Assembly (NCBI GenBank): GCA_018238155.1 | Contig: JABCTZ010000006.1 | Coordinates: 1 to 64,000 of the forward strand | Source: Candidatus Heimdallarchaeota archaeon | GTDB lineage: Archaea > Asgardarchaeota > Heimdallarchaeia > JABLTI01 | Length of the DNA: 64,000 nt | Direction: 5' to 3' | Shown: in pieces, positions 35,807-54,345 of the stretch | How positions within the stretch are numbered: the stretch's first letter is position 1 | Layout of the letters: each line of letters opens with the position of its first letter | Made by a program: the position numbers and the translations under genes | The notes under the pieces: generated by a model | What the model was told of the DNA's origin: nothing | Databases searched by the model: none | What the model saw: the letters and a program-made list of their open reading frames with translations, nothing else

Positions 35807-36604
35807 TCATGCTGTTTTTTCTTCTATTGGCAACTCTTTGTAGAATTTGCGTAAGAAATTTGGCATAACATAACCTAGATATGCAAATGAACACATTAGA
35901 ATCGCTGCAACGTAAGCAATATAATAGAATGGTGTAAATCCTTCTATTGAAAAGATAGGTATTAATCCTTCGCTAGCTGTCAAGAAGTCAAGAGCAAAAG
36001 AACTGTAAGTTATCACTCCAAAAACAGCTGAAAGGATAATAAATTTGAATCCTACTTTTTCCCATCTCAGATTTGCTTCTTGAAGTGGACGAATAGTGAG
36101 GAACATCAAAGTGAAGAACGATATGAAAGTTAATGCTAAATGATAAAGTGTTGGTGAAAGAGCATAAACTGGATTAGGCCAGGTATTAAATGTAGCTCCT
36201 ATTAATAAACCAATTGTGATACCATTTAATGCTCCAAAAATTATTGGAATAAGCATTTTCGTTCTTCGGAAAATGGGCGATTGTGAGAAAACAATAGCAA
36301 CAAATATCATAATGAATACATTACTAATAGCTGAAAATCCATAACCAATATTGATTCCAAGAGCACTAAAGCCAATAGTAGTATAATTTGTATTTGTAAT
36401 TATCTCATTATCAATTAGATATTGAATTAATTTACCAAGAAATAAACTAAGAGCTCCAATAACCCAGGCATTAAAAGCAATTGCTAATGTAAGTGCTGCA
36501 ATTCTCTTACGATCGAAATATCTATAGTATAAAGCTGCTACTACAAATGAAACAGCTAGAAAAGCAATTCCTTCTGTGATAACTGCTTCGAGTGGGATAT
36601 CCAT
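35807..36604 (-). CDS. Seven-TM membrane protein (paralog 2)
   Basis: Seven hydrophobic segments. Shares YFDR, GIN.GY.FSA.SN, FRRTK, LNGITIG, YHL.LTF, LRWE..GF and AYLGY.MP with its neighbour. Confidence 0.8.
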   Translation of the reverse strand: MDIPLEAVITEGIAFLAVSFVVAALYYRYFDRKRIAALTLAIAFNAWVIGALSLFLGKLIQYLIDNEIITNTNYTTIGFSALGINIGYGFSAISNVFIMIFVAIVFSQSPIFRRTKMLIPIIFGALNGITIGLLIGATFNTWPNPVYALSPTLYHLALTFISFFTLMFLTIRPLQEANLRWEKVGFKFIILSAVFGVITYSSFALDFLTASEGLIPIFSIEGFTPFYYIAYVAAILMCSFAYLGYVMPNFLRKFYKELPIEEKTA

Positions 36605-36605
36605 T

Positions 36606-37409
36606 TTAATTAACCTCCGGCTCTTTTAGTAAATTACGTATTCTCGTTGGCATAGCATATCCAAGATAAGCAAATGTGGACATTAGGATAGCAAATACCC
36701 AACCAAAATAATTAAAGACAGTATACCCTCTGCCAAATATCTCCTTGAAGAATAAAGGAAATATGAGGTCTAAAACGAACATAACATAAATCATTATACC
36801 TGAAAAACCATAAAGGATAATGAAGGTAAAACCTGCTCGTTCCCATCTCAAAGTAGCCTCTTTTCTTTCTTTAAAACTAAGAGCTAAGAGTAATGTGAAT
36901 GAAAAGAATGTTAAGAGCAAATGGTATATTGTTTGAGCAATTGGATATTGGGGATTATATAGTTCGGTTGGATCTACAGCGTCCAAGCTTAAAGAAAGAG
37001 TATTAATAATTAAACCAATCGTAATTCCATTAAGAATTGCATTCACTAGTGGTATTGTTTTCTTGGTTCGTCTAAACATTGGTGCTTGAGAAAAGATTTG
37101 TGATATGAACAAAACCATAAATATGTTACTTGCTGCAGAGAAAAGATAACCAAGGTTGATGCCATATCTTGCGTATTGTATTTCTCCTGCTAATTGTGGC
37201 ATATTAATGTAATGTAAAATAAAACCGAGAAATACTAAAATTCCACTTATCCCCCAGAAGAGGAAGGTTAATGCTAAAGTTAAAGCAGGTTCTTTTCTTC
37301 TATCAAAATATTTCATGAAAAGCATTATAACAACTGTAAATACAGCCAAAAGCACAAATCCTAATATAATTATTGATCCAAGTTTTGGATCTTGAGGTAA
37401 GTCTGCCAT
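36606..37409 (-). CDS. Seven-TM membrane protein (paralog 1)
   Basis: Same shared motifs; 1-bp gap to paralog 2. Confidence 0.8.
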   Translation of the reverse strand: MADLPQDPKLGSIIILGFVLLAVFTVVIMLFMKYFDRRKEPALTLALTFLFWGISGILVFLGFILHYINMPQLAGEIQYARYGINLGYLFSAASNIFMVLFISQIFSQAPMFRRTKKTIPLVNAILNGITIGLIINTLSLSLDAVDPTELYNPQYPIAQTIYHLLLTFFSFTLLLALSFKERKEATLRWERAGFTFIILYGFSGIMIYVMFVLDLIFPLFFKEIFGRGYTVFNYFGWVFAILMSTFAYLGYAMPTRIRNLLKEPEVN

Positions 37410-37424
37410 GATGTTTCACTCCAA

Positions 37425-37880
37425 TTACCAGAGAGCATCCTTCATTTTGTCAATTGGTGACAATTCCTTCTGGTGCCACTCGATCATTTCTAGCATAGAT
37501 TTCTTAAATTCAGATATTTTGACAATATCAAAATTATTTGGATCATAAACCTTCTCAAATTTTGTTGCTATTTCCTTAGCAACGCCTTCCCATTGAGATA
37601 ATATTTTATCATCCATGGATGTTTTAAAAACAAAAGTTACTGAAACTCCTTTTTCAGCACAAATTTGAGCTATTAGTTGATCATTTAGACCCAACTTGAA
37701 AATGCCTTTCTCAAGTTTCGTTGCAATGTCTTTTATTTGGTCAAGAAAGCCCATAAAAGTATCAGAATTTGGATCTATATCACCAATCTGAGTTGTAATT
37801 AAGGCTTCTCCACTATCTTTTGAGAAAATAATCGCGTTCTCGATCATAGTAGTTTTTTTCTCCATAAAATGGATAAACAT
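37425..37880 (-). CDS. Longin/roadblock-like small protein
   Basis: IENAIIFSKDSGEALI (beta-beta-G), helix TFMGFLDQIKDIATKL, strands, then final helix AKEIATKFEKVY. Probable start at 37865 or 37847. Confidence 0.6.
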   Translation of the reverse strand: MFIHFMEKKTTMIENAIIFSKDSGEALITTQIGDIDPNSDTFMGFLDQIKDIATKLEKGIFKLGLNDQLIAQICAEKGVSVTFVFKTSMDDKILSQWEGVAKEIATKFEKVYDPNNFDIVKISEFKKSMLEMIEWHQKELSPIDKMKDALW

Positions 37881-39147: not shown

Positions 39148-42100
39148 TTATTTCCTTCCAACTATTCTTGGATTGATTTTTCCTTCTAGAATTAAGTATT
39201 CAATTTCTCTCTGAATTGTTTCAGGTGGGAAGTTCATTTGGGTTGAAATTTTGTTAATGTCAATATTTCCAATGTCTTGATAACCTAATGCAAGCTTCGC
39301 GACTTCACTTCTGAGTTGAAGATATGAATAGAGTACTGTTGTGTCTTTATTAAATACTGCCATAAACTTTTGTGGAATGTATTCGATACGAATTACGCTA
39401 AGAATTTCATCTAACCGTAATTTTGTTTTATTAGCTAAATCTGCTACAATAGCTTTACCATTATCTAATAATTCTTTATCACACCAGTGCAATACTTCAG
39501 AAAGTATATCACTTGAAACAAAAAGACCAATTTTGAAGTACTTGCCTGTGATTTCTTTATGAGCATAAAGATCTTGAATTAGAACGTTGATTAAACGAGA
39601 TATTGGTTGATTTTCTAAATATTCATAAATACTAATTCTTCCTCGCTCATAAATATCTGCTCGAACTTGTTCCTTATAGATATCAATGAATTCTTGGATA
39701 TTCCTTTGGAATTTGATATTTACTAAGCTTGCTTGTTGTAGTGTGAGGGAAAGATTTCCTTCTTGAAGGGCAACCAAAGATTTCTTGAGTGCAATAAATG
39801 TCCTATTTTTCAAAACACGTTGGTCATTAATTTCTTCAATAATTGTTTGAATTGCTTTGAAATCCCAAATACGTAATTTCTTAAGTGAGGATCTGATTAG
39901 AAGATCTAAGAATAAGTTAATGATTTTTGAATCAGTAGTCGCTTTAAGATATTTGAACATTAAGTCATCATAAATTTTGGTTTCTTCTATAAAACTACCA
40001 GTGCGTTCGTAAATATCTGTTGCAGCAAAAACATATGGAATTGAATGGAAGATAAGATCCTTCTTACCTGATTTAAGCATCTTTTTAGCTTGATCCAATG
40101 CTTGAAAGGCAAGGTCTTCTGCTTGTTCAATCATATTTCTATTGGCATAAACCATTCCGGGAACAAGATAACAGATATACCCATCTTCAATGGGTACAGT
40201 GTTGAAGAGATTCTGGATAGTTGTTGCTATGATTTTTATGCTCTTCTCATCTTGAGAGAGTTCATAATTTTCAAGAGAAGTTGAATAATAATATAATCCT
40301 TCTTTGAATTTGTCTTCTTTAATTTTCTGATCGCCAATACTTGCACTTATCATTGCTACATCAGCAATTAAACGATTATCACCAAAGATTTCATATATTC
40401 TTCCAGCAGCTTTCAGGAAATTGATAGCGTCACTTAATTTATTTTTATCTGCTGCAAGTTGACCTAGAGCTATACAATGTTTTCCAAGGTCAATAATTCT
40501 GTCTCGTTGTCCAAAATTATTCATTGCCGTTGCCAAAGTTTCCATTAGGACATCAAGACCTTTGAAACGTTTTTTCGTTAAACTTTCAAGTATAACTAAT
40601 AATTCATCAATGATTGCAATTCCAATTTGAGTTTGTTTGGATAGAGATGCTAATCGCAATGCTTGGTCTTCAATTCTTATTGCTTTATCGAAAGTAGTTG
40701 ATTTTTGATGTAATAATTCAGCAGTCTGATGCCAAGCTATAATCATATTTGCATAATCCAAATTGCCAAGAATGGATAGAGGGTAATTTGAGTTGATAAT
40801 TGAGCTGAGTAATTTGATGATATTTTCTCTTGCAAAAATTACTAAGTCAACATTCTTTTCTTCAGATATATCTTGGTTTAATTGTATTAATGGAAATGCT
40901 ACTACAGGATAGAACTCTTTTTCTGATAAGTTGATAACTAGATTGATAGTTGTACTTAGTAATTTCATACCATCTTTTCTAGTTGAAGATTCTAGGCAAA
41001 GAATCCTTCCAGTTTGAGCTAATGTGCCAATAAACTTTCTACTTTCTTTGATATCATTGACTTCTAGATAGATACTTCTTGCTTGATTTACTGTTGCATC
41101 AATTAAGTCAAATTTCTTATTTTTAATTAAATAATTAACATGGTCTAAATAATTATTTGCAATATTAATCTTTAATTTAGAATTACTCGCTAAATCTGCT
41201 GCTGCATTTGCAGCATCTAAAATACCTCTGGCTATTCTTGGTCCACGTGAAATGAGTAATTTTTTACCATAATCAGTTAGTATTTTAGATAAATGTTCAA
41301 GACCTTTCTGATTTTTTGTTTGACTCAAGAATTTAGTTGTTGAATCAATAAATTGTTCAATAAGCTCTAATCGACTATCTTCATCTATTATGCTCTTTTC
41401 ATATTGTGCTCCTATTACTTGTGAAATGGTTTCAAGATAGTTAGCTCCTGCTCGAGAGGTTTTTTCGAGTTTAGTTTCATATTGTACGATAAGCTCACCA
41501 CCAGCATTCATAAATTGAATGCCTAAAATTGGGTCTCCTTCTTTAATTAATTTCAAACCAAAATCAATGCATCTGTTTCCTACTTTTGGCAGATAATTGT
41601 TTAAACCTGCTCTAGTAGAAAGTTCCATTGCTTTTGAGAAATAGAGAGCCGCGATATCGAAATTCCGTTCATTGAGCATTTTACCTCCTTGGTTGATAAA
41701 GATTTCAGAGATCACCATGATTCTTTCAGTTCGTTGAAGGAAGATATACAATCCACCGGCAAGCTCAACTAAAGGCATTCCAGTATTAATGTTATTATTA
41801 TCAATTTGTTTTCGACCTTCAGCAATGAGTTCATTAACAATATCTAATGATTCTTTGGTTAAGTTCCCTTGAGCTAAGAGATGAACACCATTTCTAAATG
41901 CTTCAACTGCAGCTGCCATTTCATTTCTTTGCATAAGAGTTCGTCCTAAATCAATACTGATTTGACCGATACCTGTAAGATCATTTATTGTACGGAGGAT
42001 GCCAATACCTGATGCAAGAATAACATGAGATGCTTCGAGTTTTCCATCTTCTCTAAGAATGATACCTTGATTTCTACATACAGTAGCTAAGTGCTTAATT

Positions 42101-45100
42101 GAAGATTCATCCGAGATTTGAGCTATTTTCTCCATGCCCTTGTCAATTAATCGGCTACCACCAACATTTCTTCCATAAGAAATCAATAGAGCTGCTCCAA
42201 CAAAACATTTCTCAACACCACCTGTCATCTCTCCTTTAGCAAAGAGAGCATCAATTGCTGTGTTGATTAAATGGAATCCTTCTTTGGCTCTTTCAGCTTC
42301 AATGTAATTCTTTGCATGTGTGAGTAGCCTTTCAGTGCCGAGGAACAAATCATCAGCAGAAGTCATTGCTTCAAAGGCAATTGGTAACATTTTGAATGCT
42401 ATGTCATATTCTCTTTTCTTCTGGAGGTCTGTGGCGATTTTAAATATAGAATTCGCTAGATGGATTAATCGATTATTCTTTCCGGTCCTTCTAAAGAGAG
42501 TAAAGCTTTCCTTGAATAATTCTATAGATTTCTCATGATTTTTAATCTCATAAAATGTTTGACCTTCAATCATACAAAGACGGCCTGTGAATTCTTCGCC
42601 AACTATAGCACCAATAGTAAGTGCAACTTCCCATAATCGTAATCCAGCATCAGGATTATTACTTTTGATATTTGCAGTACCAAAAGCCATGACCTTAAGA
42701 GCAGTTTCTTCTACTTCTTTCATACGGTTATTTTGTTCCAGAATTTTAGCTATTTTTGCATAACAGAGAATGCTATTTTCAATACTATTTGCAGCCATCA
42801 ATTGATCAACTAACTCTTCTAAAAATTGAATAGATTCATCCACACGTTTAATTTCAGTTAAGATTTCTGCTCCACGAATACCCCATGAAACAGCTACTTC
42901 GTTATTCTTTTGTTTGAGAAACTCTTCACAAGTATTGATACAGATGCCCGCAGCTTCAATATCTTTATTCACGCTTCGAAGAATTTCAATTGTGAGATTA
43001 ATGTAGTTTGTTGCTGGGAGGAGTTCACTTTCAACAATTAAATTACTTGAAATTATTGCTACTTCATTTGCAAGTTGACTAAGCTGTTTCAAATTTTGGG
43101 TTTGAATATATGCTTTGTAGGTTTTTTCTAAACTAATTAAAGCAGCATCATGTAGGTTTTCTTTTGAGAAAATTTGCCATTCTTTTAGTTTAATTTCTTC
43201 GTTAAGTTTTAAATCGTTATTTTGTAAAGCAAAATTTTCAGCTAACTGAAAGAATTCTTGGCTTCTTGTTGACCTAACTCCTCTATCTAATTTTATTGAA
43301 GGAATAATACCTTGAACAATTTCTGTTGCTATATCGATTATTTGGTTGATGAGTTTGGTTAATTTTTTATCTTTTTTTAGACTTAGAAAGATATCACCTG
43401 TTTCTCTGAATTTTACTAACCCTTCTTCCAAATTATTATTTATAATATGATATTCGCCCATTGAATTTTGTATTTCAGCAATTGATGAAGGATCTTTTAA
43501 AATAACGTACAATTCTATTGCTTTGTCTAAAAGAACAAGACCAAATTGAGGTGTGTAGCTTTGAAGGAATTTTTCACCTTCAATTCTTGCTGTTTGAGCT
43601 CCTTGGACAGTTTTATCTGCTTTATTGAGAGCTTCTATACCTAGAGTTATCATGCTATTCGATTCAACAAGCTTGTCTTTTTTGAAGAGATCTCTTCCTT
43701 TTTCAATAATTTCAGCACCAACTATAGCTGCGTGTCTAACTGATGAAGAAAGATACAAATCAATTGACTTTGAGTAATATTTTATCGAAAGACCAAATTG
43801 TTCTTTAGATAGAAATTCTTTTGCTGTTTCATATGAACGACCTGCTTCTGCCTCTGTGCTAACTGCTCCATCTATCTGAATGGCTACTTGAAATCCTTTT
43901 TCAGCGTTAACAAAATCACCTTTATTCAAGATGGTTGTAAATGTTTCAAAACAATGATTTGCTACACCCGGATAAATCTTACCTTTTTCGGGTATTTTAT
44001 TCTTTACAGAAGCAAGAAGGTAATATTCCAAACTCTTTTCGTGATTATCATGTTCAGAATGATATCTTGCTAGTGCTGAAAGAATTCTTGCTGCTTCTTC
44101 CGGTTGATCCGCTTTCGTGAATTCAACAGCTCCTTCCTCAAAAAGAGGGTCTGCATAATCAGTAAGATTCTTTCGCAAGAAATCAGCTGCAAAACTAACC
44201 ATAATTCTAGCAGCTCGTTCATATTCTCCTGCCTCTGAGAGTACTTTGCCACTCCCTCGAGCAGATGCAAGCGTGATATCATTTAGTTCTTCAATATTGA
44301 ATTTTCTGATATTAGTTATATGATCTTCAATAGTTTCTACTGCTGAATTGATATTTCGTTTAATTAAGGCTCTAGAGAGCGTTTCATTAAAATCACAAGC
44401 AGCACTCCATAATCCTTCTGCATTGATAATATCGCCATTTTTTATACACTGTTCTGAGTACTTCGTTGCCAACATCACTAATGGTTTGAATTTTTGTTCT
44501 TGGAGTTCTGCAGGAATTGTTTGAGCAGCAAGCTTTAATCGGTCTAATGCAGTATCAAAATGTCCTTCAACAAGTAGCTCATCTGCAAGCTTGAGGTAAA
44601 CATCTGCTGCGTCTTCGTTTTTGCCTGCTTTTATATAAGCTTCAGCTGCTTTTGTTGCTAAATCAATGCCTGTCTGAAGATTTCTAACTTTAAACATTGG
44701 TTTCCACGAAGAATCAAAAGTATCTGCTGCTAGCTCTATTTCTCCTAATTCCATAAAGAAATCCGCACAAAGACGATACATTATTTCAGCATAATGGAAA
44801 TCATTTTTATCAAAACGTTCTCGAGCGAGCTGTCGTATTTCACTGGGAATATCTACTCTTTCTTCGCTTTCAGGCAGTTCTTTTAATGGGTCAATCATTT
44901 TTTTGAAAGCTTCAGTTGCAAGTTGAAATTTGTTATATTTTAGTAGAAGCTCAGCTTCTTTCTTATAAACTAATACCTCAAAATTACGGTCAATTAATTT
45001 TCCAATTTCAATTGCAATATTAAAATAATCTCTGCCAATTGGATACTGTTCTATTGTGTGAAGTTGTAATCCCATAGAAATAATACTATTTCCAAATTCG

Positions 45101-46074
45101 ATGATATCATCTTTTTTACCAATTTCGATATAATATTCTTTGGCCATATTATAGTAGGGAATTGCTTCACTGTAAAGTTTCTTTTCAAAAATAGCTAATC
45201 CAATTAAAGCTAACTCACGTGCAAGAACGGTAATTGCGGGAATTGCATCACGAGAAATACAAATATCTTTTGCATGTTTGATTAAACGAACAGCAGTGCT
45301 ATTTTCATACTGAACTGCATCTGATTTTACAAGTATGTTTTCGGGGTCTAAAATCTCAGGGATTAAGGTTTCAATGTGCACGATAAAATTTTCCATTACC
45401 TTTTCAGCTGCCAAGATAATAATTTCCTTATTATCAGGTTTCATTTCAAGAAGTAGCTTTACAGCTTCATCAAGAGCTTTATCTCCTTTTTCAGCTTGCT
45501 TCCCATCAAAATATTTTTGAGAGAGTGAGGTGTAGAAATCAATAGACCCAATTTCATAATCAGCTTTTTTATAAAGTGCTTTTGCTTTCTCTAAATACTC
45601 TTCCCCAATTTTTTCTTCCTCGGTTTTTACTTTTACTTTTAACAATATTTGGATGACATTTTCACTATATGCTTTTGCTGCCTCTAAGTATTTTTCTTTC
45701 GGATCTTTGCCGATTTTTTCATATTGACTTGCAATTGTTTCATTTATTTTACCCACTAAATCATACCTGTTTTCTCTTGTCTGGAAAATTATGGCTGCTT
45801 TCTCTAAGAATTCTTCAGCACTAGTTTGAAATGTTTCAAAATTCGAATAGTCCAATTTTTCACTAGCATCAATAAAATAATTAATCGTTTGAATCAATAT
45901 TTTTGAATCATTTTTAATAACTACTGCTTCAGCTATTTCCAGTAATAATCGAGATGCTTCTTCATGATTATCTTTCTCAATCAAAGTATGAATTAATCTA
46001 AAGAATTCATCCACTGCTGCTCTTGTTGAACCAGAATTTAGGAGATGGCGTGCTTTTTCAATATTCTCAAACAT
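39148..46074 (-). CDS. Giant (2308 aa) SNAP/TPR alpha-solenoid protein with C-terminal winged-helix (UFL1/PCI-like) repeats
   Basis: Continuous helical repeats (AAEAYIKAGKNEDAADVYLKLA). C-terminal DKELLDNGKAIVADLANKTKL and ISTQMNFPPETIQREIEYLILEGKINPRI. Confidence 0.8.
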   Translation of the reverse strand: MFENIEKARHLLNSGSTRAAVDEFFRLIHTLIEKDNHEEASRLLLEIAEAVVIKNDSKILIQTINYFIDASEKLDYSNFETFQTSAEEFLEKAAIIFQTRENRYDLVGKINETIASQYEKIGKDPKEKYLEAAKAYSENVIQILLKVKVKTEEEKIGEEYLEKAKALYKKADYEIGSIDFYTSLSQKYFDGKQAEKGDKALDEAVKLLLEMKPDNKEIIILAAEKVMENFIVHIETLIPEILDPENILVKSDAVQYENSTAVRLIKHAKDICISRDAIPAITVLARELALIGLAIFEKKLYSEAIPYYNMAKEYYIEIGKKDDIIEFGNSIISMGLQLHTIEQYPIGRDYFNIAIEIGKLIDRNFEVLVYKKEAELLLKYNKFQLATEAFKKMIDPLKELPESEERVDIPSEIRQLARERFDKNDFHYAEIMYRLCADFFMELGEIELAADTFDSSWKPMFKVRNLQTGIDLATKAAEAYIKAGKNEDAADVYLKLADELLVEGHFDTALDRLKLAAQTIPAELQEQKFKPLVMLATKYSEQCIKNGDIINAEGLWSAACDFNETLSRALIKRNINSAVETIEDHITNIRKFNIEELNDITLASARGSGKVLSEAGEYERAARIMVSFAADFLRKNLTDYADPLFEEGAVEFTKADQPEEAARILSALARYHSEHDNHEKSLEYYLLASVKNKIPEKGKIYPGVANHCFETFTTILNKGDFVNAEKGFQVAIQIDGAVSTEAEAGRSYETAKEFLSKEQFGLSIKYYSKSIDLYLSSSVRHAAIVGAEIIEKGRDLFKKDKLVESNSMITLGIEALNKADKTVQGAQTARIEGEKFLQSYTPQFGLVLLDKAIELYVILKDPSSIAEIQNSMGEYHIINNNLEEGLVKFRETGDIFLSLKKDKKLTKLINQIIDIATEIVQGIIPSIKLDRGVRSTRSQEFFQLAENFALQNNDLKLNEEIKLKEWQIFSKENLHDAALISLEKTYKAYIQTQNLKQLSQLANEVAIISSNLIVESELLPATNYINLTIEILRSVNKDIEAAGICINTCEEFLKQKNNEVAVSWGIRGAEILTEIKRVDESIQFLEELVDQLMAANSIENSILCYAKIAKILEQNNRMKEVEETALKVMAFGTANIKSNNPDAGLRLWEVALTIGAIVGEEFTGRLCMIEGQTFYEIKNHEKSIELFKESFTLFRRTGKNNRLIHLANSIFKIATDLQKKREYDIAFKMLPIAFEAMTSADDLFLGTERLLTHAKNYIEAERAKEGFHLINTAIDALFAKGEMTGGVEKCFVGAALLISYGRNVGGSRLIDKGMEKIAQISDESSIKHLATVCRNQGIILREDGKLEASHVILASGIGILRTINDLTGIGQISIDLGRTLMQRNEMAAAVEAFRNGVHLLAQGNLTKESLDIVNELIAEGRKQIDNNNINTGMPLVELAGGLYIFLQRTERIMVISEIFINQGGKMLNERNFDIAALYFSKAMELSTRAGLNNYLPKVGNRCIDFGLKLIKEGDPILGIQFMNAGGELIVQYETKLEKTSRAGANYLETISQVIGAQYEKSIIDEDSRLELIEQFIDSTTKFLSQTKNQKGLEHLSKILTDYGKKLLISRGPRIARGILDAANAAADLASNSKLKINIANNYLDHVNYLIKNKKFDLIDATVNQARSIYLEVNDIKESRKFIGTLAQTGRILCLESSTRKDGMKLLSTTINLVINLSEKEFYPVVAFPLIQLNQDISEEKNVDLVIFARENIIKLLSSIINSNYPLSILGNLDYANMIIAWHQTAELLHQKSTTFDKAIRIEDQALRLASLSKQTQIGIAIIDELLVILESLTKKRFKGLDVLMETLATAMNNFGQRDRIIDLGKHCIALGQLAADKNKLSDAINFLKAAGRIYEIFGDNRLIADVAMISASIGDQKIKEDKFKEGLYYYSTSLENYELSQDEKSIKIIATTIQNLFNTVPIEDGYICYLVPGMVYANRNMIEQAEDLAFQALDQAKKMLKSGKKDLIFHSIPYVFAATDIYERTGSFIEETKIYDDLMFKYLKATTDSKIINLFLDLLIRSSLKKLRIWDFKAIQTIIEEINDQRVLKNRTFIALKKSLVALQEGNLSLTLQQASLVNIKFQRNIQEFIDIYKEQVRADIYERGRISIYEYLENQPISRLINVLIQDLYAHKEITGKYFKIGLFVSSDILSEVLHWCDKELLDNGKAIVADLANKTKLRLDEILSVIRIEYIPQKFMAVFNKDTTVLYSYLQLRSEVAKLALGYQDIGNIDINKISTQMNFPPETIQREIEYLILEGKINPRIVGRK

Positions 46075-46313
46075 CGTTAGTTTTACAACCCATAAAGCCT
46101 ATAGTATAGTTAGTATATGATACTTAATATTACTTTTTTATTGATTATAGACTGTTTATGTTTTATATACTTGACTCTTGCCCAAATAAAAATTGTGTTA
46201 ACGAAATTCTTCGAAGATTTAAGTGTCTTCAAATGGGCAAAGTAATTTCTTACAGTCAGTATTTATAAAAGATGAGTGTTTTATGTTATATAATTAAAAT
46301 AGGTGAATACACA

Positions 46314-47690
46314 ATGGATTTATCAGTTAGTTTTCATGGGGCAGTAGCAAGAACAACAGGATCCGCCCATTTAATTCGAGCAGGTAATAAACGGCTTTTA
46401 TTGGATTGTGGAATGATACAAGGGATACCTCACCATTATAATCGAAATTTTTCATTTGATCCAAAGTCCGTTGATGACATTATTTTATCACATGCACATG
46501 TTGACCATTCAGGTAGAATCCCTCTAATGTACAAACAGGGATTCGAAGGAAATGTCTATTGTACCGCAGCAACAAAAGATTTAGTGAAAGTTTTGCTTCT
46601 GGATGCAGTAAAAATTTCTCGGATAGAAATGAAGAAGGCTCGTTTCAGAGGTAGAAAAGCTTCTTTAAGCCCCTTATATGCAGAAGAAGATGTTTATAAT
46701 GCCTTGAAGCATTTTATTACTGTTCCTTATCATCAAGTTAAGAATATTGACAGAAAAATTTCCTTGAAATTTATTGATGCTGGACACATTCTTGGATCTG
46801 CACAAGTTATACTTGATTGTGATGGTACAATAATTACTTTTACCGGCGATTTAGGTCAAAATGGCATGCCATTGATTCGTAATCCTGATCCAATTAAGAA
46901 AACACACTATTTGATAACAGAATCAACATACGGAAATCGAATGCACACACCAATGGAAAAAGCAGCAAAAGCATTAATCAAATTTGCTAAGCATATTTAC
47001 GCCGAAGGAGGAAAATTAATCATCCCTGCTTTTGCAATTGGTAGAACACAAACATTGGTCTACTTTCTTAATGAAATATTTGAGAAAGGGGAAATCGATA
47101 AAATGCCAGTCTACATTGATTCACCTATGGCTATAGATGCAACAAAAATTTATCTAAAACATCCTGAATGCTTTGATAAAGAAACTTTGAACCTACTAAA
47201 ATCAGGCGATAACCCCTTGATATTTCCTGAATTGTCCTTTTCAAAAACACATCGCGATTCAAGAAGTATATTAAAAGGATGGGAAACATGTGTTGTTTTT
47301 GCAGGATCCGGAATGTGCACCGGAGGACGAATTTTGAGTCATTTAATTAATGAACTGCCTACAAGAAAGTCTATTGTTTTGATGGTAGGGTATCAAGCGA
47401 AAGGCACACTTGGACGAGAAATCTTTGAAGGAGCTAAATCTGTGAAGATTTATAACAAAGAAATCAAAATTCGTGCAAAGATAAGATCTATTGGAGGTTT
47501 TAGTGCACATGCTGATCGAAAAGAATTAATTGATCACATAGCAAAAATTAGAAAGAAACCAGCAAAAACATTTGTAGTGCATGGAGAAGCACAGCAATCA
47601 CTAACTTTTGCTGCAAACATAAGAAATTCTTTACGAATTTGGGCGCGTGTACCTGAACATAAGAAAGAGTATCGTCTCAAACCCTTGTAA
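46314..47690 (+). CDS. beta-CASP MBL-fold ribonuclease (YSH1/CPSF-like)
   Basis: LLDCG, SHAHVDHSG, AGHILGSA, FTGDLG, TESTYG, GSGMCTGGRI, FSAHAD and VVHGE. ORF open from 46272. Confidence 0.93.
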   Translation: MDLSVSFHGAVARTTGSAHLIRAGNKRLLLDCGMIQGIPHHYNRNFSFDPKSVDDIILSHAHVDHSGRIPLMYKQGFEGNVYCTAATKDLVKVLLLDAVKISRIEMKKARFRGRKASLSPLYAEEDVYNALKHFITVPYHQVKNIDRKISLKFIDAGHILGSAQVILDCDGTIITFTGDLGQNGMPLIRNPDPIKKTHYLITESTYGNRMHTPMEKAAKALIKFAKHIYAEGGKLIIPAFAIGRTQTLVYFLNEIFEKGEIDKMPVYIDSPMAIDATKIYLKHPECFDKETLNLLKSGDNPLIFPELSFSKTHRDSRSILKGWETCVVFAGSGMCTGGRILSHLINELPTRKSIVLMVGYQAKGTLGREIFEGAKSVKIYNKEIKIRAKIRSIGGFSAHADRKELIDHIAKIRKKPAKTFVVHGEAQQSLTFAANIRNSLRIWARVPEHKKEYRLKPL

Positions 47691-47703
47691 TAGAATGGCT
47701 TTT

Positions 47704-49464
47704 CTAAGATTGCCTTTTATAGACAATTGCGTTTGGTTCACCAGCAATATTTGCTACAACAACTAAGTCCTGTTGTAAAAAGAACTCATGAATATCAAAG
47801 TAATAATGAGTTACACTTTGAATCTCTGTTGTCCGAATAATGACATACGTACCTTTCATACTGTATAGCTCAATAAGATGACTATGATTCAGTCTCGCCA
47901 ATGGCTTTGTAATATGTAGACGAATAAAAGTAATTGTGATATTTTTATCCAGATAAGCATAGCCGCCTGTATACCAAACCATCTCAAGAACAATAACTCT
48001 TTCAGAATCCTCTTGTTCTCCTACCCAGTACATTGCATTACAGATACCCGAATTCCATTTCCACATATAATTTTTCTGAACTAAACTCATATACAGTGAT
48101 GATGTGCTTAATATTGCCAACATCAAACCTAAAACTGCATTTCGGTAATGTTTTCTTTTAACTATTTTCGAAAATTTGTAAATGCCATTAGCAACGAAAA
48201 GCATGCCAAGTGGGAGAAAGGTCATAATAAATCTAAACTCTTTATGAGCAATGGATGAGAAAATAGCTAGCCAATAGAACATTAAAAATAAAACGAATAC
48301 TTTTGATTTGGTCTTTTCCTTAAAAATAAGTCCAAAAATAAGCAAGATGAAAAAGATGAATATGAAGATAAAGGCAAAATCAGTGAAAAATCCGATAAAA
48401 TATTGATTCCAAGGTGAAATACCATGATATGCATTATTGCCTTCTATGATATTATACTGAAAATATTTGATAGGTGAGTGGAGAAAGGTGCCCCAGGTAA
48501 ACAAGTCTAACAATCCTTGGAAAAAGACCATCAAAAAAGCTCCTCCACAAAAACATGCTAGAGTTTTCAAAGAATCAAAATATTCTCTTTTACTCAAAGG
48601 TTGATATGCCTTCTCTTCTTTATTCGCCTTCAATGTTCTTCTTACATTCTCAGTTTTTCTATAAATATCAACAAGAGGTTTGTATACAATTGCGATTGCA
48701 AGAGGAATTCCCATAAGTGCTCCTGGAAATCGTATCATAAATGATAACCCTAATGAAATTCCTGCTATTATTGAAAGAATGATTTTCCTCTTCATTTTTT
48801 CATCTTTTATCATCTTGTAGACAAGAAAAATACTTAGAAAGAGAAAATCAGATGATAGAGAATCAGTCATTGTTCGACTCGCCCAAAAAGGGAAAAACCA
48901 CCAAGTACTACAAATAAAAGCACTTACTAAGCCTACGGTTTTATTGAACATTTCTTTACCAAATAGATAAGATACTACAACAGTAATAATTGAAAAAAGG
49001 GAAAGGAATAATCTAGCAAAATACATCAAAACCAATGGGTCAGATATTCCAAAGAGCATAACAAATTTGTAGACACCAACGAGCAGTAAAACAAATAACC
49101 ATGACCGTGCCCCTCCAAACCGATAATCAGAATTGTACTCCCAAGGAATTGTTTCTCCTGATCCATATTCTCCATAAATCCAATAATGAATCATTTCAAG
49201 CGTTTGAAAAACTTCATCAGGATGAACAAATCCCTGAGATTCTTGTGTTGCTAAGAAACGAAGAATAATGGATAAAATGATAATACTCGTCAAAGGTAAA
49301 TAGTTGAAAATTTTTTTAAAAAATGTTGTGTCAAAATACTCAGAGAAATTCTTTCTTGTGGTTATATGTTCACTCACTTTTTCTCTTTCGTGAATGGAGA
49401 ACTGAGTCTTAGTTTGTTGGTCTCCTTCAAGCAAAAAATTCTTCTCTCCAACATATGTATACAC
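47704..49464 (-). CDS. GT22 (ALG9/PIG-B family) GT-C mannosyltransferase, PIG-B-like
   Basis: HPDEVFQTLEMIH...YG...PWEY...GARSW, SRTMTDS, YNIIEG..AYHGISPWNQY and SSIAHKEFRFI in a multi-TM protein. Confidence 0.85.
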   Translation of the reverse strand: MYTYVGEKNFLLEGDQQTKTQFSIHEREKVSEHITTRKNFSEYFDTTFFKKIFNYLPLTSIIILSIILRFLATQESQGFVHPDEVFQTLEMIHYWIYGEYGSGETIPWEYNSDYRFGGARSWLFVLLLVGVYKFVMLFGISDPLVLMYFARLFLSLFSIITVVVSYLFGKEMFNKTVGLVSAFICSTWWFFPFWASRTMTDSLSSDFLFLSIFLVYKMIKDEKMKRKIILSIIAGISLGLSFMIRFPGALMGIPLAIAIVYKPLVDIYRKTENVRRTLKANKEEKAYQPLSKREYFDSLKTLACFCGGAFLMVFFQGLLDLFTWGTFLHSPIKYFQYNIIEGNNAYHGISPWNQYFIGFFTDFAFIFIFIFFILLIFGLIFKEKTKSKVFVLFLMFYWLAIFSSIAHKEFRFIMTFLPLGMLFVANGIYKFSKIVKRKHYRNAVLGLMLAILSTSSLYMSLVQKNYMWKWNSGICNAMYWVGEQEDSERVIVLEMVWYTGGYAYLDKNITITFIRLHITKPLARLNHSHLIELYSMKGTYVIIRTTEIQSVTHYYFDIHEFFLQQDLVVVANIAGEPNAIVYKRQS

Positions 49465-49564
49465 GATTAGAATTTTTAAACATAAAAACTATCCCATAAG
49501 CTACTTATAACACAAGAATTTAATAAATAATAGAACTGTTGGTATTATATACTGAGGTAGAAAG

Positions 49565-51766
49565 TTGAGCGACTATATACATACTATCAGCTTCAAAGTT
49601 CTCATAGACTCTGAAGTTGTAGACTTTACGTTTAGAGTTCCACGAGGAACACTGCTCATCCAAGTATTGGATGAACTCGAAACAACATTGAAAATTCAGC
49701 CAAGAGTAATTGCTACAGTAAATCATGATGGGGAAATAATGATTGTTGAAAACCATTATTCCACCATTGAGTATCTTATACAAAAATTTGGGACTGATTT
49801 TTATGCTGGTGGATCAAGTGTTGTGACATTCAATCATGGAGAATACATTGTTGATTTAGAAGTTCCAGAAGCAATTCCATTTGCTTCATCCTTTAGAACA
49901 GCGAGCAAAAGCTTCTCAATATTACCAAGAGATGTCTCTATTGAGAGACAAGATGGTCAAGTAATGGACTATGAAATATTTCGTTTGCCCACTGCTTTTG
50001 TGCTAAATTCTTGGGGAAATTTTTATCGAATAGTTGATCGCGAATTGGGTGATCCTTTAATAGATCCACCAAAAGTGGACGGAGAAGTATCCTCTCTAGA
50101 TTCAAATCAAACTTATGAAGAAAGAACAGAATCAGAACAAACTTCAATGGTCTACCCACCGAAATTTGATGGTTCGGAATCAACAGATACTGTTTCAGAG
50201 GTATCGGAATTAGATATTTTGACTGAACATTTTGTTGAATCCTCCTTACATGAAGATGATCAAGAAGAATCCGATTCTGAACATGTTGAGAGAACTTCTC
50301 CTTGGCAAAAAACGGAAGACGAGGAGCCCTCTTCAAGTTCAATTGAGCTTGAAGAAGAACCAACAATTGAATCATTGATGGATGAAATCCTCCTTGAAAG
50401 TAAAACAGATCAAAACGATGATGACGTCGACGGAGAATTTCTAACTCAAGCAATTGAAGAACCATTGGCAGATTCTGTTGTTACAGATGTTTCACAGTTT
50501 GATGAGGAATCTGATGACATTCCCCTAAGTGAAGTGATTGATTTTGGCGATGAAATAGATGCTTTAGAGGATGAAACAATTATTGATGAGACGGAAGAAG
50601 AAGATGCTTCAGAAATCCCTGCTCAAGATATTTATGAAGTATCAGTCCTCGAGGAAAATGGTTCAGAAGAACAAATTTTTGATGAATTTGTTGATGAAAC
50701 AGAAGAAATAGCTGCTGATCTTCCAATTGAAGAAACTTCTTCAACATTTGAGGAAATGATTACAACTTCTTTTACAGAAGAGAAAGAAGAACCTGAAGAG
50801 GAAGAAGAATCTGAGGAAGAAACATTTGTTTCTCAACCATTTGATGACGAGCAATTTATTGAATCCATCAAAGATCATTATGTTGCAGAAGATTCACGCG
50901 ATGAAATACTAACATCCACAGCTGAAACAGAAATAATTGAAGATGGTGTTGAAGAAGAATTAGAGAATGAACCTCAAGCATTAGATGATTTGACGGGAGA
51001 TTTGGTTGTTGAATCTGAAGATATTTTCGAATCTGTTGTCAAAGACATCGATGAAGCAATTGAACAATCTGAAATTACTCCTATTCTGAAGGATTTACCT
51101 TTAGATCAAAGACTGGAGATTAGAAAACAAGAGCTAGTTTCTCTTGAAAAAACTTTGAGTGAAGAAGAGAAACTAAAAGTGAAGATACAACAAAGAATGA
51201 TTTCCATTGATTATTACGAAAAAATGAATCCACGAAAAGTATATTCTATATCCGTGAAAATTTCACCTACTCTTTCAACTAAACAAAATGAACATAATAT
51301 TAAACTGAAGATTGTACCAATATTTCCAGGTTGCTATGTAACACCTCACCAAGAGATTGTTGAAATAAATGGTGAAAGTGATATTGATGTAGAATTTACT
51401 GTAACACCTCTAATTAGCCAAGGAACGGTCAACGGAAAACTTGGCATTTGGTATAAAGGAAGGAATATTCTTAATATTAATACTACTTCAAAAATAAGGA
51501 ATTATTCGGGTTGCATTGTTAGTAGTATATTGGCATTTCTATTTGGAATAATGCCTTTTCTATTTTTAATATTTAATTTTAATTTTAACAATGCTTTAGC
51601 AACAGGATTAAATAACATCTTTTCAACTACATTGACAGCTAATCTGTTTGTGATTTTTGAAATAATTTTGCTAGTAATTTTTCTTGGTCTAATGGTTGGG
51701 TTCATTTTCGTAGGGAAACCAACCAAACGAAAAATAAAACGCAAATTTTATCCTGTAGCTCCTTGA
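49565..51766 (+). CDS. Membrane-anchored protein: two tandem UFM1-like beta-grasp domains, acidic linker, beta-rich domain, two C-terminal TMs
   Basis: aa 7-83 and aa 84-162 resemble each other and UFM1 (SFK, VPE..PF, DG, G...RI..R..G). About 350 aa D/E-rich. TTG start with GAGGT RBS. Confidence 0.7.
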   Translation: MSDYIHTISFKVLIDSEVVDFTFRVPRGTLLIQVLDELETTLKIQPRVIATVNHDGEIMIVENHYSTIEYLIQKFGTDFYAGGSSVVTFNHGEYIVDLEVPEAIPFASSFRTASKSFSILPRDVSIERQDGQVMDYEIFRLPTAFVLNSWGNFYRIVDRELGDPLIDPPKVDGEVSSLDSNQTYEERTESEQTSMVYPPKFDGSESTDTVSEVSELDILTEHFVESSLHEDDQEESDSEHVERTSPWQKTEDEEPSSSSIELEEEPTIESLMDEILLESKTDQNDDDVDGEFLTQAIEEPLADSVVTDVSQFDEESDDIPLSEVIDFGDEIDALEDETIIDETEEEDASEIPAQDIYEVSVLEENGSEEQIFDEFVDETEEIAADLPIEETSSTFEEMITTSFTEEKEEPEEEEESEEETFVSQPFDDEQFIESIKDHYVAEDSRDEILTSTAETEIIEDGVEEELENEPQALDDLTGDLVVESEDIFESVVKDIDEAIEQSEITPILKDLPLDQRLEIRKQELVSLEKTLSEEEKLKVKIQQRMISIDYYEKMNPRKVYSISVKISPTLSTKQNEHNIKLKIVPIFPGCYVTPHQEIVEINGESDIDVEFTVTPLISQGTVNGKLGIWYKGRNILNINTTSKIRNYSGCIVSSILAFLFGIMPFLFLIFNFNFNNALATGLNNIFSTTLTANLFVIFEIILLVIFLGLMVGFIFVGKPTKRKIKRKFYPVAP

Positions 51767-51770
51767 TTTG

Positions 51771-51794
51771 ATGATTAACGCAGCCGTTAATCAT
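51771..51794 (+). terminator. Hairpin plus T-rich tract
   Basis: ATGATTAACG-cagc-CGTTAATCAT-tttc. Confidence 0.5.
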
Positions 51795-51867
51795 TTTCAT
51801 TTTCTAAATGCTCTAGAAAGATTTTAATATAAATTAAATAGAAAAGCAAGAGAAGGAGTAAGAACAT

Positions 51868-52086
51868 ATGAATGATTTCAACGCATTCCTTGGTCCAAAA
51901 GGTTTACTAGCATTTGCCATTATTTTTCTAATTTTAGGAATAGCCGCGTTCGCATGGTTGTTCATGTATCAAGAAGCAGACCCAGATAGAACATTTCGTG
52001 GTTCAGTAGCCCGAGCATTTTCTGCATCAATGTTTATGGGATTTTCAGTTTTCCTCTTTGTTGTCTGGAGTGGCGCAATAGCATAA
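51868..52086 (+). CDS. OST5/TMEM258-like oligosaccharyltransferase small subunit
   Basis: 72 aa, two TMs. G...AWLFMY and ASMFMGFSVFLFVVWSG match TMEM258 (AWFFVY; ASLFMGFGVLFLLLWVG, recalled). AGGAG RBS. Confidence 0.75.
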   Translation: MNDFNAFLGPKGLLAFAIIFLILGIAAFAWLFMYQEADPDRTFRGSVARAFSASMFMGFSVFLFVVWSGAIA

Positions 52087-52108
52087 TTTCATTAATGATA
52101 AGAAGAAG

Positions 52109-52126
52109 AGCGATCGTTCGATCGCT
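52109..52126. terminator. Inverted repeat between convergent genes
   Basis: AGCGATCG-tt-CGATCGCT. Confidence 0.5.
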
Positions 52127-52145
52127 AAATTAACTATTTATTTTT

Positions 52146-52892
52146 TCAATGATATTTAACATTTGAGCAATTGCTCTTAGATTTAATATTGAGCGTTTCA
52201 AAGAGCATTGAACCAATATCTATGAACAATAGGCTATTAATTAACAGTGGTTCTTCTTTTAGCATTACTCTAGTAGCTTCTGCAACTTGTAGGCTACCAA
52301 TTAACTGAATTATACTTGGATGAATACCTGTAATAGATGAAACTGGAAGTGTTTTATCATCAACATGACCAAATAAGCATTCAATACAAGTACTACCTCG
52401 AACAACAGTCATTGCATTCCCAGTTAAACCACTAACTGCACCAAAGAGGAAAGGTAAATCTTTTTCTAAACACTTTTTATTTATTGCAAATCTTGGTGTG
52501 AATCTATCTAAGGCATCAATAACAAAATCTACATTATCAGTCACAAGTTCAACATTTTTAGTAGTAATCTCTTCCTGAATGATTTTAATTTCAACATCAG
52601 GATTAAGATATTCTAAGAATTTTTTAGCTGCTTGTACTTTGGATTTGCCTACATCCTTTTCACGGTAAAGCATTTGTCTTTGCAAATTTGATAATTCAAC
52701 GACATCTTTGTCAATTAATCGCAAGTAACCTACTCCTAAAGCAGTAAGTTGAGTAGCAGTAACAGAACCTAGACCTCCTGCTCCAACAATAGAGACTCTA
52801 GCTCTTCGTATTTTTTTCATACCCTCAACACCAATTGACGGGAGAACAATAAAACGAGAATATCTGCCTGTAGTCAAGTCCTTTTCGTTCAA
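52146..52892 (-). CDS. ThiF/MoeB/E1-like adenylyltransferase
   Basis: RYSR, VGAGGLGS, DKDVVELSNLQRQ, DALD...R and CIEC. Confidence 0.9.
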   Translation of the reverse strand: MNEKDLTTGRYSRFIVLPSIGVEGMKKIRRARVSIVGAGGLGSVTATQLTALGVGYLRLIDKDVVELSNLQRQMLYREKDVGKSKVQAAKKFLEYLNPDVEIKIIQEEITTKNVELVTDNVDFVIDALDRFTPRFAINKKCLEKDLPFLFGAVSGLTGNAMTVVRGSTCIECLFGHVDDKTLPVSSITGIHPSIIQLIGSLQVAEATRVMLKEEPLLINSLLFIDIGSMLFETLNIKSKSNCSNVKYH

Positions 52893-52896
52893 AGTT

Positions 52897-53487
52897 TTAC
52901 TTCTCCTTTAGTAGCTCTTTTGCGAGCTTCTTGACTAAGTTAAATTCGTAATTGTCTACTTCTTTCTTGAAACTAATGAAAAAATCACTGAACATCTCTT
53001 TAGAGAGACCATTTTGAATATAATTATTCATCTGAAGGATAGTTTCCAGTCGATCTGCTTCAGAGACTATTCTTGCTTCAATAGATTTCTTATCTTGAAA
53101 CTCAGAGAAATATTCTTGCAGAATTTTTCCTTGCTCTGGTGGAAGTTTTTGAAATAATGAATTTGCTGCATTTTTGTCAAGGTCATGTTTGAAGGCATCG
53201 AATTTTTCTGGGGCGAATTTTCTTATACAACGGTTAATATCTTGAGATACACTTTCAGACAAGTCATGTATATGCGCCATGATTAATGCTTTTTCTAAAT
53301 TGATCTTTTTTCCATTAGCCTTTTCATCAAAACAGATTAACATAGTAATCATCGTTACAAACTGACTATGATCTGCAACACTTTCTACTTGTGATAGTGG
53401 AACACCAGAATATATCCATCCACTTCTGACTATTCGTTTCAAGCGGATAGATTCTTGTAAAAATGACAATAACTCTATTTCATGCAT
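52897..53487 (-). CDS. HD-domain phosphohydrolase (YfbR/HDDC2-like)
   Basis: LKRIVRSGW, ESVADHS, HIHDLSE and EARIVSEADRLE. Confidence 0.9.
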   Translation of the reverse strand: MHEIELLSFLQESIRLKRIVRSGWIYSGVPLSQVESVADHSQFVTMITMLICFDEKANGKKINLEKALIMAHIHDLSESVSQDINRCIRKFAPEKFDAFKHDLDKNAANSLFQKLPPEQGKILQEYFSEFQDKKSIEARIVSEADRLETILQMNNYIQNGLSKEMFSDFFISFKKEVDNYEFNLVKKLAKELLKEK

Positions 53488-53577
53488 TTGATATCACACA
53501 CATATACTAATTCATTTCAAATTAAAAATGATTGGCACTACTAATAAAAAAAGAGTTGGTTGGTTAATTGCTCCAAC

Positions 53578-54345
53578 CTAAGTATAAAAGGTGCTCTTTT
53601 TCCTTCCTTGTTGGGGCGATGCAGAAGACATTTCTTGTGTTTGATGAGCTAATTCTGAAAGTTTCTTTTTTATGGATTCAGATTGCTCAACCAAATTTTT
53701 GACTTGTACATCTAATTCTTTTAAATTATTGATAACCTTAATGAGCGCTGCAGCACCTCCCGGATCTGGGAGATTAGGTCTTGTACCTACAAGAAACGCA
53801 TATCCATCAACATCACTTATCATGGTTTTGTTCAAAATTGCTCCTGCAAATCCTTTAATAAATCCACTTTTCAGAGGGGGAATGTTCAATTTCTCAGCTT
53901 TGGCTTTAAGCTCTGGTTCTGCAACCATATACACTTTCCCTTCATCATTTTTATTGAGATAGCCGAATCCATCAAGGATAATAATTTCCTTTGCTCCATG
54001 TTTCTCTGTCCATTCCATAATAGTATTAGCAATGAAATAGGCAGCTTCCGGAGAGACAGCACTTTCACCAATGAATATTGCAATTTTCGAGCCTTTCTTT
54101 CCCATGATTCGATAAGGATGTCTTAGATACCCATCTAGGAAAACAGCTACAGGTGGTAATGCAACACCTTCTATAAAACCAATGGTTTCAAGGGCTAATT
54201 TTTTGCTTATATGTTGAGCAGCAATTGCTCCAGTTAACCCCATGCCCGGAAAACCAATAATAACTGTTTCTACATCAAAATCCGTTTTGCAGATACATCG
54301 AGCATACATCTCGGAATTATCAATTAAACTTCTATCATAACTCAT
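53578..54345 (-). CDS. PAC2 family proteasome assembly chaperone (PbaA/PbaB-like)
   Basis: IIGFPGMGLTGAIAA, PDPGGAAALI and a C-terminal FYT (HbYX). Confidence 0.9.
   Translation of the reverse strand: MSYDRSLIDNSEMYARCICKTDFDVETVIIGFPGMGLTGAIAAQHISKKLALETIGFIEGVALPPVAVFLDGYLRHPYRIMGKKGSKIAIFIGESAVSPEAAYFIANTIMEWTEKHGAKEIIILDGFGYLNKNDEGKVYMVAEPELKAKAEKLNIPPLKSGFIKGFAGAILNKTMISDVDGYAFLVGTRPNLPDPGGAAALIKVINNLKELDVQVKNLVEQSESIKKKLSELAHQTQEMSSASPQQGRKKSTFYT

Follow-up and report, generated by a model that had tools for sequence, protein, structure and literature searches.

UFM1-like domains at the N-terminus of a 733-residue protein

We analysed the first 64 kb (64,000 nucleotides, referred to here as the window) of contig C1 (JABCTZ010000006.1) of a Candidatus Heimdallarchaeota archaeon genome (GCA_018238155.1; 4.08 Mb in 46 contigs, estimated completeness 90.7%). 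An original prediction, made from the DNA sequence alone, had grouped eight long open reading frames (ORFs) lying between positions 39148 and 54345 into a candidate ancestral UFMylation and membrane quality-control neighbourhood, and all eight were present at exactly the coordinates it gave. Our main subject is the product of one of them, a protein of 733 amino acids (aa) that had been described as a tandem UFM1-like membrane protein. Family assignments were made using Pfam and NCBIfam searches of the window proteins. The gene and the parts of its product are as follows.

49565–51766, + strand: membrane-tethered tandem UFM1-like protein, 733 aa; ORF with a TTG start and an upstream GAGGT ribosome-binding site
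49565–49813, + strand: UFM1-like domain 1, aa 1–83, ending AGG and without a C-terminal tail (hhalign, profile A6, reciprocal genome matches)
49814–50062, + strand: UFM1-like domain 2, aa 84–166, with invariant Gly162-Asp163 (AF2, Foldseek, VIA, Pfam Ufm1, alignment A3)
50063–51124, + strand: acidic linker, probably disordered, aa 167–520, Asp+Glu 36% (composition)
51125–51529, + strand: charged segment, probably coiled-coil, and a conserved beta-rich domain with no assigned family (alignment A4)
51506–51724, + strand: membrane hairpin of two hydrophobic helices, aa 648–674 and 685–720, followed by a Lys/Arg-rich C-terminus (hydropathy)

Approximately 40 homologues of the 733-aa protein (642–917 aa) were found, all labelled as Heimdallarchaeota or Asgard metagenome-assembled genomes, with heads (the two N-terminal domains) that are 62–94% identical, which rules out that the gene is an artefact. 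The 733-aa protein had no Pfam match at default thresholds. Ufm1 was the sole consistent Pfam family across 24 of 24 family members (best E 3e-5), and the window protein, with 14.8 bits, did not reach the gathering cut-off of 27. A hidden Markov model search with the head profile in 1.8 billion representative proteins returned the protein's own family, in 17 clusters, and one weak repetitive match; thus a plain sequence search does not tie the head to UFM1. When compared to the PDB, the head profile matched UFM1 chains only, with E ~0.3 over the segment of strand 2 and helix 1. Neighbours of the head in a feature-based search were beta-grasp families with scores below 0.9, which served as leads only.

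Modelling of the whole head with AF2 on the shallow family alignment gave a pLDDT of 48, and this model was not used. Because folding of the whole head failed, we built a single-domain alignment (A3) from domain 2, domain 1 and stand-alone relatives in sister genomes, from which AF2 modelled domain 2 with a pLDDT of 95.1 and a pTM of 0.83. In a Foldseek search with this model, ranks 1–12 were UFM1 chains (TM 0.72–0.86, rmsd 1.5 Å), with SUMO, ubiquitin and NEDD8 behind, and in VIA-align, ranks 1–11 were UFM1 (Z 10.4–12.3), with SUMO, ISG15 and UBX domains at 9.8 or less. Domain 2 superposed on eukaryotic UFM1 (PF03671; PDB 5ia7, 5l95 and 5xda) at an rmsd of 1.1–1.8 Å with ~20% identity; conservation between the two is highest in the strand 2/helix 1 stretch, and domain 2 has a Gly at the position of the mature C-terminus. 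For domain 1, hhalign comparison with stand-alone archaeal UFM1-like proteins gave E 1e-5 across 82 columns, domain 1 and these proteins were reciprocal matches in genome searches, and a joint profile of domain 1 and its stand-alone relatives (A6) matched UFM1 chains in the PDB over nearly their full length (E 0.015–0.2). From these profile comparisons and the domain 2 model, the N-terminus of the 733-aa protein consists of two tandem UFM1-like domains, in agreement with the original prediction.

Gly162-Asp163 at the end of domain 2 is invariant, and in alignment A3 Gly162 falls under the terminal Gly of the stand-alone modifiers, which end in ...RGVVG. Gly162 is internal, with ~570 residues downstream, so that the protein as encoded has no exposed C-terminal Gly.

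Linker and membrane anchor

Length and sequence of the acidic linker are not conserved among the homologues. Mean column identity was 74% in the head compared to 48% in the anchor module, in which the beta-rich domain carries the motifs Y..M.P.K and P.FPGC.V.P ... F..TP (alignment A4) and the hairpin has an invariant Asn in its loop and an invariant Glu in helix 2. The protein has no signal peptide and its C-terminus is positively charged; thus both ends of the protein most likely face the cytoplasm. Pfam returned nothing consistent for the anchor module, with one family member weakly matching DUF7363, and its feature neighbours were unnamed Asgard and Planctomycetota clusters.

The distribution of the anchor module was followed through the GTDB families of the class, designated f1 to f7, of which f1 contains the window genome. 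It was present in f1, f2, f4, f5, f6 (22 of 22 genomes) and f7, but not in f3. Outside the f1 protein, the module always formed the C-terminal end of proteins of 420–630 aa with differing heads, including a Ras-family GTPase (genome G075), a domain with a weak SPFH match (genome G010) and others without an assigned family, and the window genome itself encodes a paralogue with a different head (C24:49436–50758). Since the anchor module is widespread with other heads, we regard the f1 protein as a derived fusion and not as the ancestral arrangement, in which a duplicated UFM1-fold unit appears to have been joined onto a pre-existing tether. Members of the class-wide tether family at loci L066, L068, L071, L072 and L073 combine a variable head with a Pro- or charge-rich disordered linker, the beta-rich domain and the two-helix hairpin.

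Distribution of the tandem head and of UFM1-type conjugation genes

In searches of 400 genomes of the phylum, the tandem head was limited to one family, f1, where it was found in 10 of 11 genomes from two genera. The 2308-aa product of a neighbouring window gene (the giant, described below) was likewise restricted to f1. This confinement of both proteins to a single family indicates that they are derived and not ancestral. Only recently have UFM1 homologues been described from Asgard archaea, in nine clades, some with several hit regions (PMC12962969).

In sister families f2, f3 and f5, one operon encodes a ThiF-type E1, a JAMM protease, a stand-alone UFM1-like protein of 86–92 aa ending in ...RGVVG and an E2 of 195 aa; in sequence, domains 1 and 2 are most closely related to these modifiers. 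The E1 of this cassette, which is UBA5-like, retains the crossover-loop Cys (genome G051), and the E2 scored 27.3 bits with Pfam UFC1, over the cut-off of 25; UFC1 has been treated as eukaryote-only (PMC10183829). In genome G010 (L035:1495–2331) the modifier is fused to the UFC1-like E2 with the junction ...QVG|S. The cassette is patchy within the class, occurring in f2, f3 and f5 but not in f1, f4, f6 or f7. Compared to this arrangement, in which a free modifier and its enzymes share one operon, the f1 lineage has UFM1-like domains built into a membrane protein.

Cassette operons were seen at loci L028–L035 (genomes G016, G015, G031, G012, G011, G014, G051 and G010; e.g., L031:425–3259). They also hold a 239-aa protein with a weak EAP30/Vps36 match, and in G051 an SPFH/Band 7 gene adjoins.

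The UFC1-like E2 found in f2, f3 and f5 was absent from 12 of 12 f1 genomes. Searches of the window genome (90.7% complete) with Pfam UFC1, Peptidase_C78 and E3_UFM1_ligase gave no match over cut-off, and tblastn with the sister-family UFC1-like E2, JAMM protease and stand-alone UFM1-like protein returned nothing; the earlier remark that no UFC1 or UFSP protease was to be seen thus extends from the locus to these searches of the whole genome. A weak UFC1 match on contig C25 contains stop codons, and weak E3_UFM1_ligase matches lie on contig C24 and on contig C20, in a region that encodes unrelated proteins. The window genome does encode four Prok-JAB proteins, three ThiF-family proteins and several UQ_con-type E2s. 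A separate ubiquitin-type operon on contig C13 (25157–28502) contains genes for a Zn-ribbon protein, a JAB protease, a ThiF-type E1, a 103-aa ubiquitin-like protein (UBL; ending ...QVG) and an E2-like protein, and further UQ_con and ThiF genes lie elsewhere on the same contig.

Genes beside the tandem UFM1-like gene

The remaining long ORFs of the region, with their family assignments, are as follows.

39148–46074, − strand: giant, a 2308-aa all-alpha TPR-like solenoid (Pfam TPR_12 only)
39148–39849, − strand: C-terminal ~230 aa of the giant, approximately three winged-helix-like units (sub-threshold Pfam matches)
46272–47690, + strand: beta-CASP/RMMBL ribonuclease, aCPSF-type, without KH domains (Pfam, NCBIfam)
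47704–49464, − strand: GT22 (Alg9/PIG-B-type) lipid-linked glycosyltransferase (Pfam Glyco_transf_22)
51868–52086, + strand: Ost5/TMEM258 homologue, 72 aa, two helices, probably with its own promoter (Pfam Ost5)
52146–52892, − strand: MoeB/ThiF-type adenylyltransferase, 248 aa (Pfam ThiF, 1e-67)
52897–53487, − strand: HD-domain protein (HD_3; YfbR-like 5'-deoxynucleotidase family), 4 nt upstream of the ThiF gene (Pfam, NCBIfam)
53578–54345, − strand: PAC2-family (proteasome assembly chaperone family) protein (Pfam PF09754, 1.6e-35, 123 bits, over cut-off; TIGR00161)

The original prediction of an OST5/TMEM258-like gene directly downstream of the UFM1-like gene was borne out. The product scored 31.8 bits with Pfam Ost5 (PF05251; cut-off 27.4), hydropathy indicated two helices, and a profile of seven homologues (A5) matched human TMEM258 (6s7o_C) over its full length with E 0.006, the only significant PDB match. 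It thus resembles the Ost5/TMEM258 subunit of the eukaryotic oligosaccharyltransferase in size, helix number and family score, whereas its gene does not lie next to AglB/STT3, which is on contig C15, and instead stands beside a MoeB/ThiF gene in three families. Ost5/TMEM258 genes have already been reported from most Asgard classes (Eme et al. 2023, PMC10307638). Within the 101-bp spacer that separates it from the UFM1-like gene, an inverted repeat (GATGATTAACG ... CGTTAATCATT) followed by a T-rich run (51771–51794) comes directly after the UFM1-like stop codon, and an AT-rich, TATA-like box lies ~40 nt upstream of the Ost5 start; this hairpin and box suggest that the two genes are transcribed separately.

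An Ost5-like gene (72–73 aa) also adjoins the orthologue of the window ThiF gene in G010 (f2; L046:841–3029) and G051 (f5; L047:906–3042). These ThiF orthologues are 371–376 aa long and keep the Cys, and an MBL-fold gene follows the pair. The adjacency of Ost5 and ThiF genes spans three families in varying orientation.

The PAC2, HD and ThiF genes form the run that had been described, all three families being recovered with Pfam. The window ThiF protein (228 bits) matched the NCBIfam MoeB, ThiF and UbaA models below their cut-offs, its PDB ranking placed ThiF, Uba1 and MoeB above UBA5, and alignment with E. coli ThiF shows a Ser in place of Cys184 and a second CxxC that is incomplete, in keeping with the earlier observation that the E1-like protein lacks its Cys. 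In five sister genomes, its best matches (36–41% identity, E 1e-46 to 1e-60) lay away from the cassette, and the cassette E1 ranked lower (~E 1e-22), so the window protein is not a UFM1-type E1. On these comparisons it is best classed as a generic MoeB/ThiF/UbaA-type paralogue and not as an orthologue of the cassette E1.

The GT22 gene is divergent from the UFM1-like gene across 100 bp. Of the earlier description as a PIG-B-like GT22 enzyme, the family stood (Pfam Glyco_transf_22, PF03901; E 1.5e-44, 153 bits, over cut-off), while a PDB sequence search returned no match by which the PIG-B subtype might be told from ALG9/ALG12. Orthologues with at least 49% identity were found solely in f1, and a paralogue lies on contig C7. 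The intervening beta-CASP gene that had been noted was confirmed as Beta-Casp/RMMBL by both Pfam and NCBIfam.

The giant belongs to a family of 20 homologue clusters, likewise labelled as Heimdallarchaeota or Asgard metagenome-assembled genomes, with full-length members of 2306–2334 aa. Its tail matched PCI (PF01399) in 9 of 19 members (best E 0.007; the window copy scored 13 bits against a cut-off of 22) and E3_UFM1_ligase (PF09743) in 6 of 19 (best E 1.9e-5, sub-threshold), and it also weakly matched RuvB_C, FeoC, HTH_DeoR and Cullin_Nedd8, all of which are winged-helix families; a PDB sequence search with the tail gave nothing of note. Helical repeats capped by a winged helix, as would be the case in the giant, are the plan of PCI proteins. 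UFL1, compared to the giant, is ~790 aa with its winged-helix repeats at the N-terminus, whereas the giant has 2308 aa, a C-terminal tail and matches that are shared with generic winged-helix families. "Winged-helix tail" is therefore a reasonable name for these matches, but "UFL1-like" is not established: of the earlier description, the solenoid was upheld, a winged-helix fold of the tail is plausible, and the UFL1/PCI identity, with every match below cut-off, was not upheld. A complex prediction of the giant's tail (alignment A2) with the tandem head (A1) gave no answer (score 0.00) and was used neither way.

Some f1 genomes encode a second giant paralogue of ~2307–2318 aa (1714 aa at a contig end) with a distant winged-helix tail (E 1e-14 to 1e-24; tails at G082:C44:46972–47469, G090:C4:20529–21038, G084:C67:7509–8009 and G091:C35:434–1075); none was detected in the window genome. 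On contig C7 of the window genome (307450–310582; L023), the genes for a 552-aa GT22 paralogue and the ribosomal stalk protein P1 lie together with that for a Lys-rich protein of 278 aa with winged-helix repeats. The 278-aa protein scored 26.7 bits with PCI (over cut-off), 22 bits with E3_UFM1_ligase and 17.8 bits with DDRGK, and by these scores it is a better DDRGK/UFL1/PCI-like candidate in this genome than the giant. Its close orthologues were confined to genus g1 and in every case lay close to the GT22 paralogue (two genes apart in the window genome). UFL1 and DDRGK1 have been proposed to be older than UFM1 (PMC10183829).

Conservation of gene order

The order giant, beta-CASP, GT22, UFM1-like, Ost5, ThiF, HD and PAC2 recurs in f1 loci, and its first four genes kept their order in every locus seen. 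Collinearity in f1 extends well beyond these genes, to homocysteine S-methyltransferase, hydantoinase, PAS kinase and PlsY genes on one side and, on the opposite side, to galactokinase and additional ORFs. The block stops right after the UFM1-like gene in the most divergent lineage (GCA_014730365.1); Ost5, ThiF, HD and PAC2 are gone, with no Ost5-like ORF next to it. Another f1 lineage has two genes inserted ahead of Ost5. Outside f1, GT22 and Ost5-like genes lie on different contigs. Since unrelated flanking genes are equally collinear, the conserved order reflects inherited collinearity within one family and gives no specific support for a functional module. Synteny across Asgard genomes, which the original prediction had proposed as a check, thus held as to gene order within f1, where the flanks are kept just as well and the block is broken in a divergent lineage; outside the family, GT22 and Ost5-like genes are unlinked.

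Interpretation

The role of the 733-aa protein can be considered from what was observed: the fold of its head, its architecture, the lineages in which it occurs and the lack of a UFM1 cassette. HERPUD1/Herp, yeast Usa1 and TMUB1/2 are docking adaptors of the endoplasmic reticulum (ER) membrane that carry an N-terminal, cytosolic, unconjugated UBL head and a membrane hairpin or anchor. We favour, with rather modest confidence, a comparable reading of the 733-aa protein: its UFM1-fold head would serve for docking without being conjugated, held by the long acidic linker on the cytoplasmic side of the membrane, in a lineage without a free UFM1-type cassette. The protein would be this lineage's own version of a broader type of Heimdallarchaeial membrane protein ("head on a leash"), in which a head that varies and would lie in the cytoplasm is combined with a long disordered linker, the conserved beta-rich domain and a hairpin of two membrane helices. 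The head would stay attached, as do the UBL domains of Herp, Usa1 and TMUB1, and would serve as a docking site through which one or several partners that bind UFM1 are brought to the membrane, without conjugation; both the lack of conjugation and the docking role are what we infer from the features above. The heads of Herp, Usa1 and the TMUB proteins are ubiquitin-type and single, these proteins have no acidic leash of 350 aa, and no sequence relationship was found. The head also differs from eukaryotic UFM1, being present in two tandem copies and fused to a 570-aa linker and anchor, with an internal Gly and no UBA5, UFC1 or UFSP partner in the genome.

Several points weigh against this docking interpretation. 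An invariant Gly162-Asp163 need not persist in a purely structural domain and would fit cleavage, and the four JAB-type proteases and the separate E1/E2 operon on contig C13 could in principle act on the head. The giant and the tandem UFM1-like protein share a narrow range and are always nearby, which leaves room for a functional link between them.

Three other explanations were considered, each of which we judge to be improbable. The 733-aa protein could be a precursor from which a protease, e.g., of the JAMM/JAB type, cuts after Gly162 to free a two-domain UFM1-like modifier that is then activated and conjugated, with the membrane remainder as a C-terminal extension. Two beta-grasp domains in a row, a Gly ending the second and a C-terminal extension are also features of ISG15/FAT10 and of ubiquitin-fusion precursors, and ISG15 C-terminal domains were among the fold matches of domain 2 (VIA Z 9.2–9.7). 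The alignment of the invariant Gly162-Asp163 with the terminal Gly of the ...RGVVG modifiers, the natural fusion of a UFM1-like protein to a UFC1-like E2 in G010 and the Prok-JAB, ThiF-family and UQ_con-type genes of the window genome all speak for it. However, ISG15 and FAT10 are soluble and have known processing proteases and a dedicated E1 and E2. The UFC1-like E2, the cassette-type JAMM and an orthologue of the UBA5-like E1 are absent from the window genome and from all 12 family genomes, the adjacent ThiF protein is without the Cys and falls into a different orthologous group, domain 1 no longer has its tail, and no free form is known. These points make processing unlikely, if marginally less so than the two explanations that remain. 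According to one of these, the head binds a motif in the acidic linker or in the beta-rich domain and thereby regulates the tether, by autoinhibition or oligomerisation, with no outside partners. Acidic and aromatic stretches abound in the linker, and the layout of head, leash and membrane-proximal domain is common to paralogues with other heads; the lack of conservation of the linker, set against heads that are 62–94% identical, makes such internal binding doubtful.

The third explanation is the original prediction itself, in which the giant, GT22, UFM1-like, Ost5, ThiF, HD and PAC2 proteins cooperate as a proto-UFMylation or ER-like membrane quality-control module. Its parts were correctly identified, the first four genes are kept in order, the giant has a probable winged-helix tail and the same family-restricted range as the UFM1-like protein, and the GT22 paralogue on contig C7 lies two genes from a DDRGK/UFL1/PCI-like winged-helix protein; nevertheless, none of these encouragements rises above collinearity, which the unrelated flanks share. 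The loss of Ost5, ThiF, HD and PAC2 at this locus in the most divergent lineage, the two-gene insertion in another, the hairpin and TATA-like box ahead of Ost5, the location of AglB/STT3 on another contig, the separation of GT22 and Ost5-like genes outside f1 and the adjacency of Ost5 and ThiF in two families without the tandem UFM1-like gene all argue against it, as do a ThiF protein that is not UBA5-type and the absence of an E2 or UFSP. With its one-family range, plain collinearity, different ThiF paralogue and no UFC1-like E2, the ancestral module was not supported, and we consider it about as improbable as internal binding of the head. Under the docking interpretation, the GT22, Ost5-like, beta-CASP, MoeB/ThiF–HD and PAC2 genes would have separate functions, and their adjacency would be gene order inherited within one family; it would be wrong to cite the neighbourhood as an ancestral module for UFMylation or ER quality control.

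The UFM1 fold is here put to use in another way: duplicated, strongly conserved and membrane-tethered, in a lineage without the tagging enzymes of its sister lineages. The 733-aa protein is a concrete protein with which to ask what archaeal UFM1-fold domains bind and how UFM1 came to be linked to membranes. A more far-reaching and speculative version, to which we give little credence, is that the tethered tandem head recruits clade-specific winged-helix proteins (the 2308-aa solenoid and the 278-aa protein encoded beside P1) to the membrane and, through them, perhaps ribosomes. If true, the UFM1 fold would have passed from being a free, conjugated tag to being fixed on the membrane itself, giving a non-covalent equivalent of the UFMylation that takes place at the ER, with the anchored and the soluble partner exchanging roles.

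Flanking genes of the window

The genes on either side of the region are unremarkable ones for metabolism and signalling (galactokinase, homocysteine S-methyltransferase, hydantoinase A/B, PAS histidine kinase, aldo-keto reductase and PlsY). Three tightly packed ORFs on the − strand (35807–37880; 265, 267 and 151 aa) had no Pfam match, and ORFs of similar size lie beyond the galactokinase gene in the most divergent lineage (L078:18404–21859), the likeness being one of size and position. The PAS histidine kinase (59464–61446, + strand) has a thioredoxin/glutaredoxin-like domain inserted ahead of its HATPase domain, an architecture that recurs in related loci.

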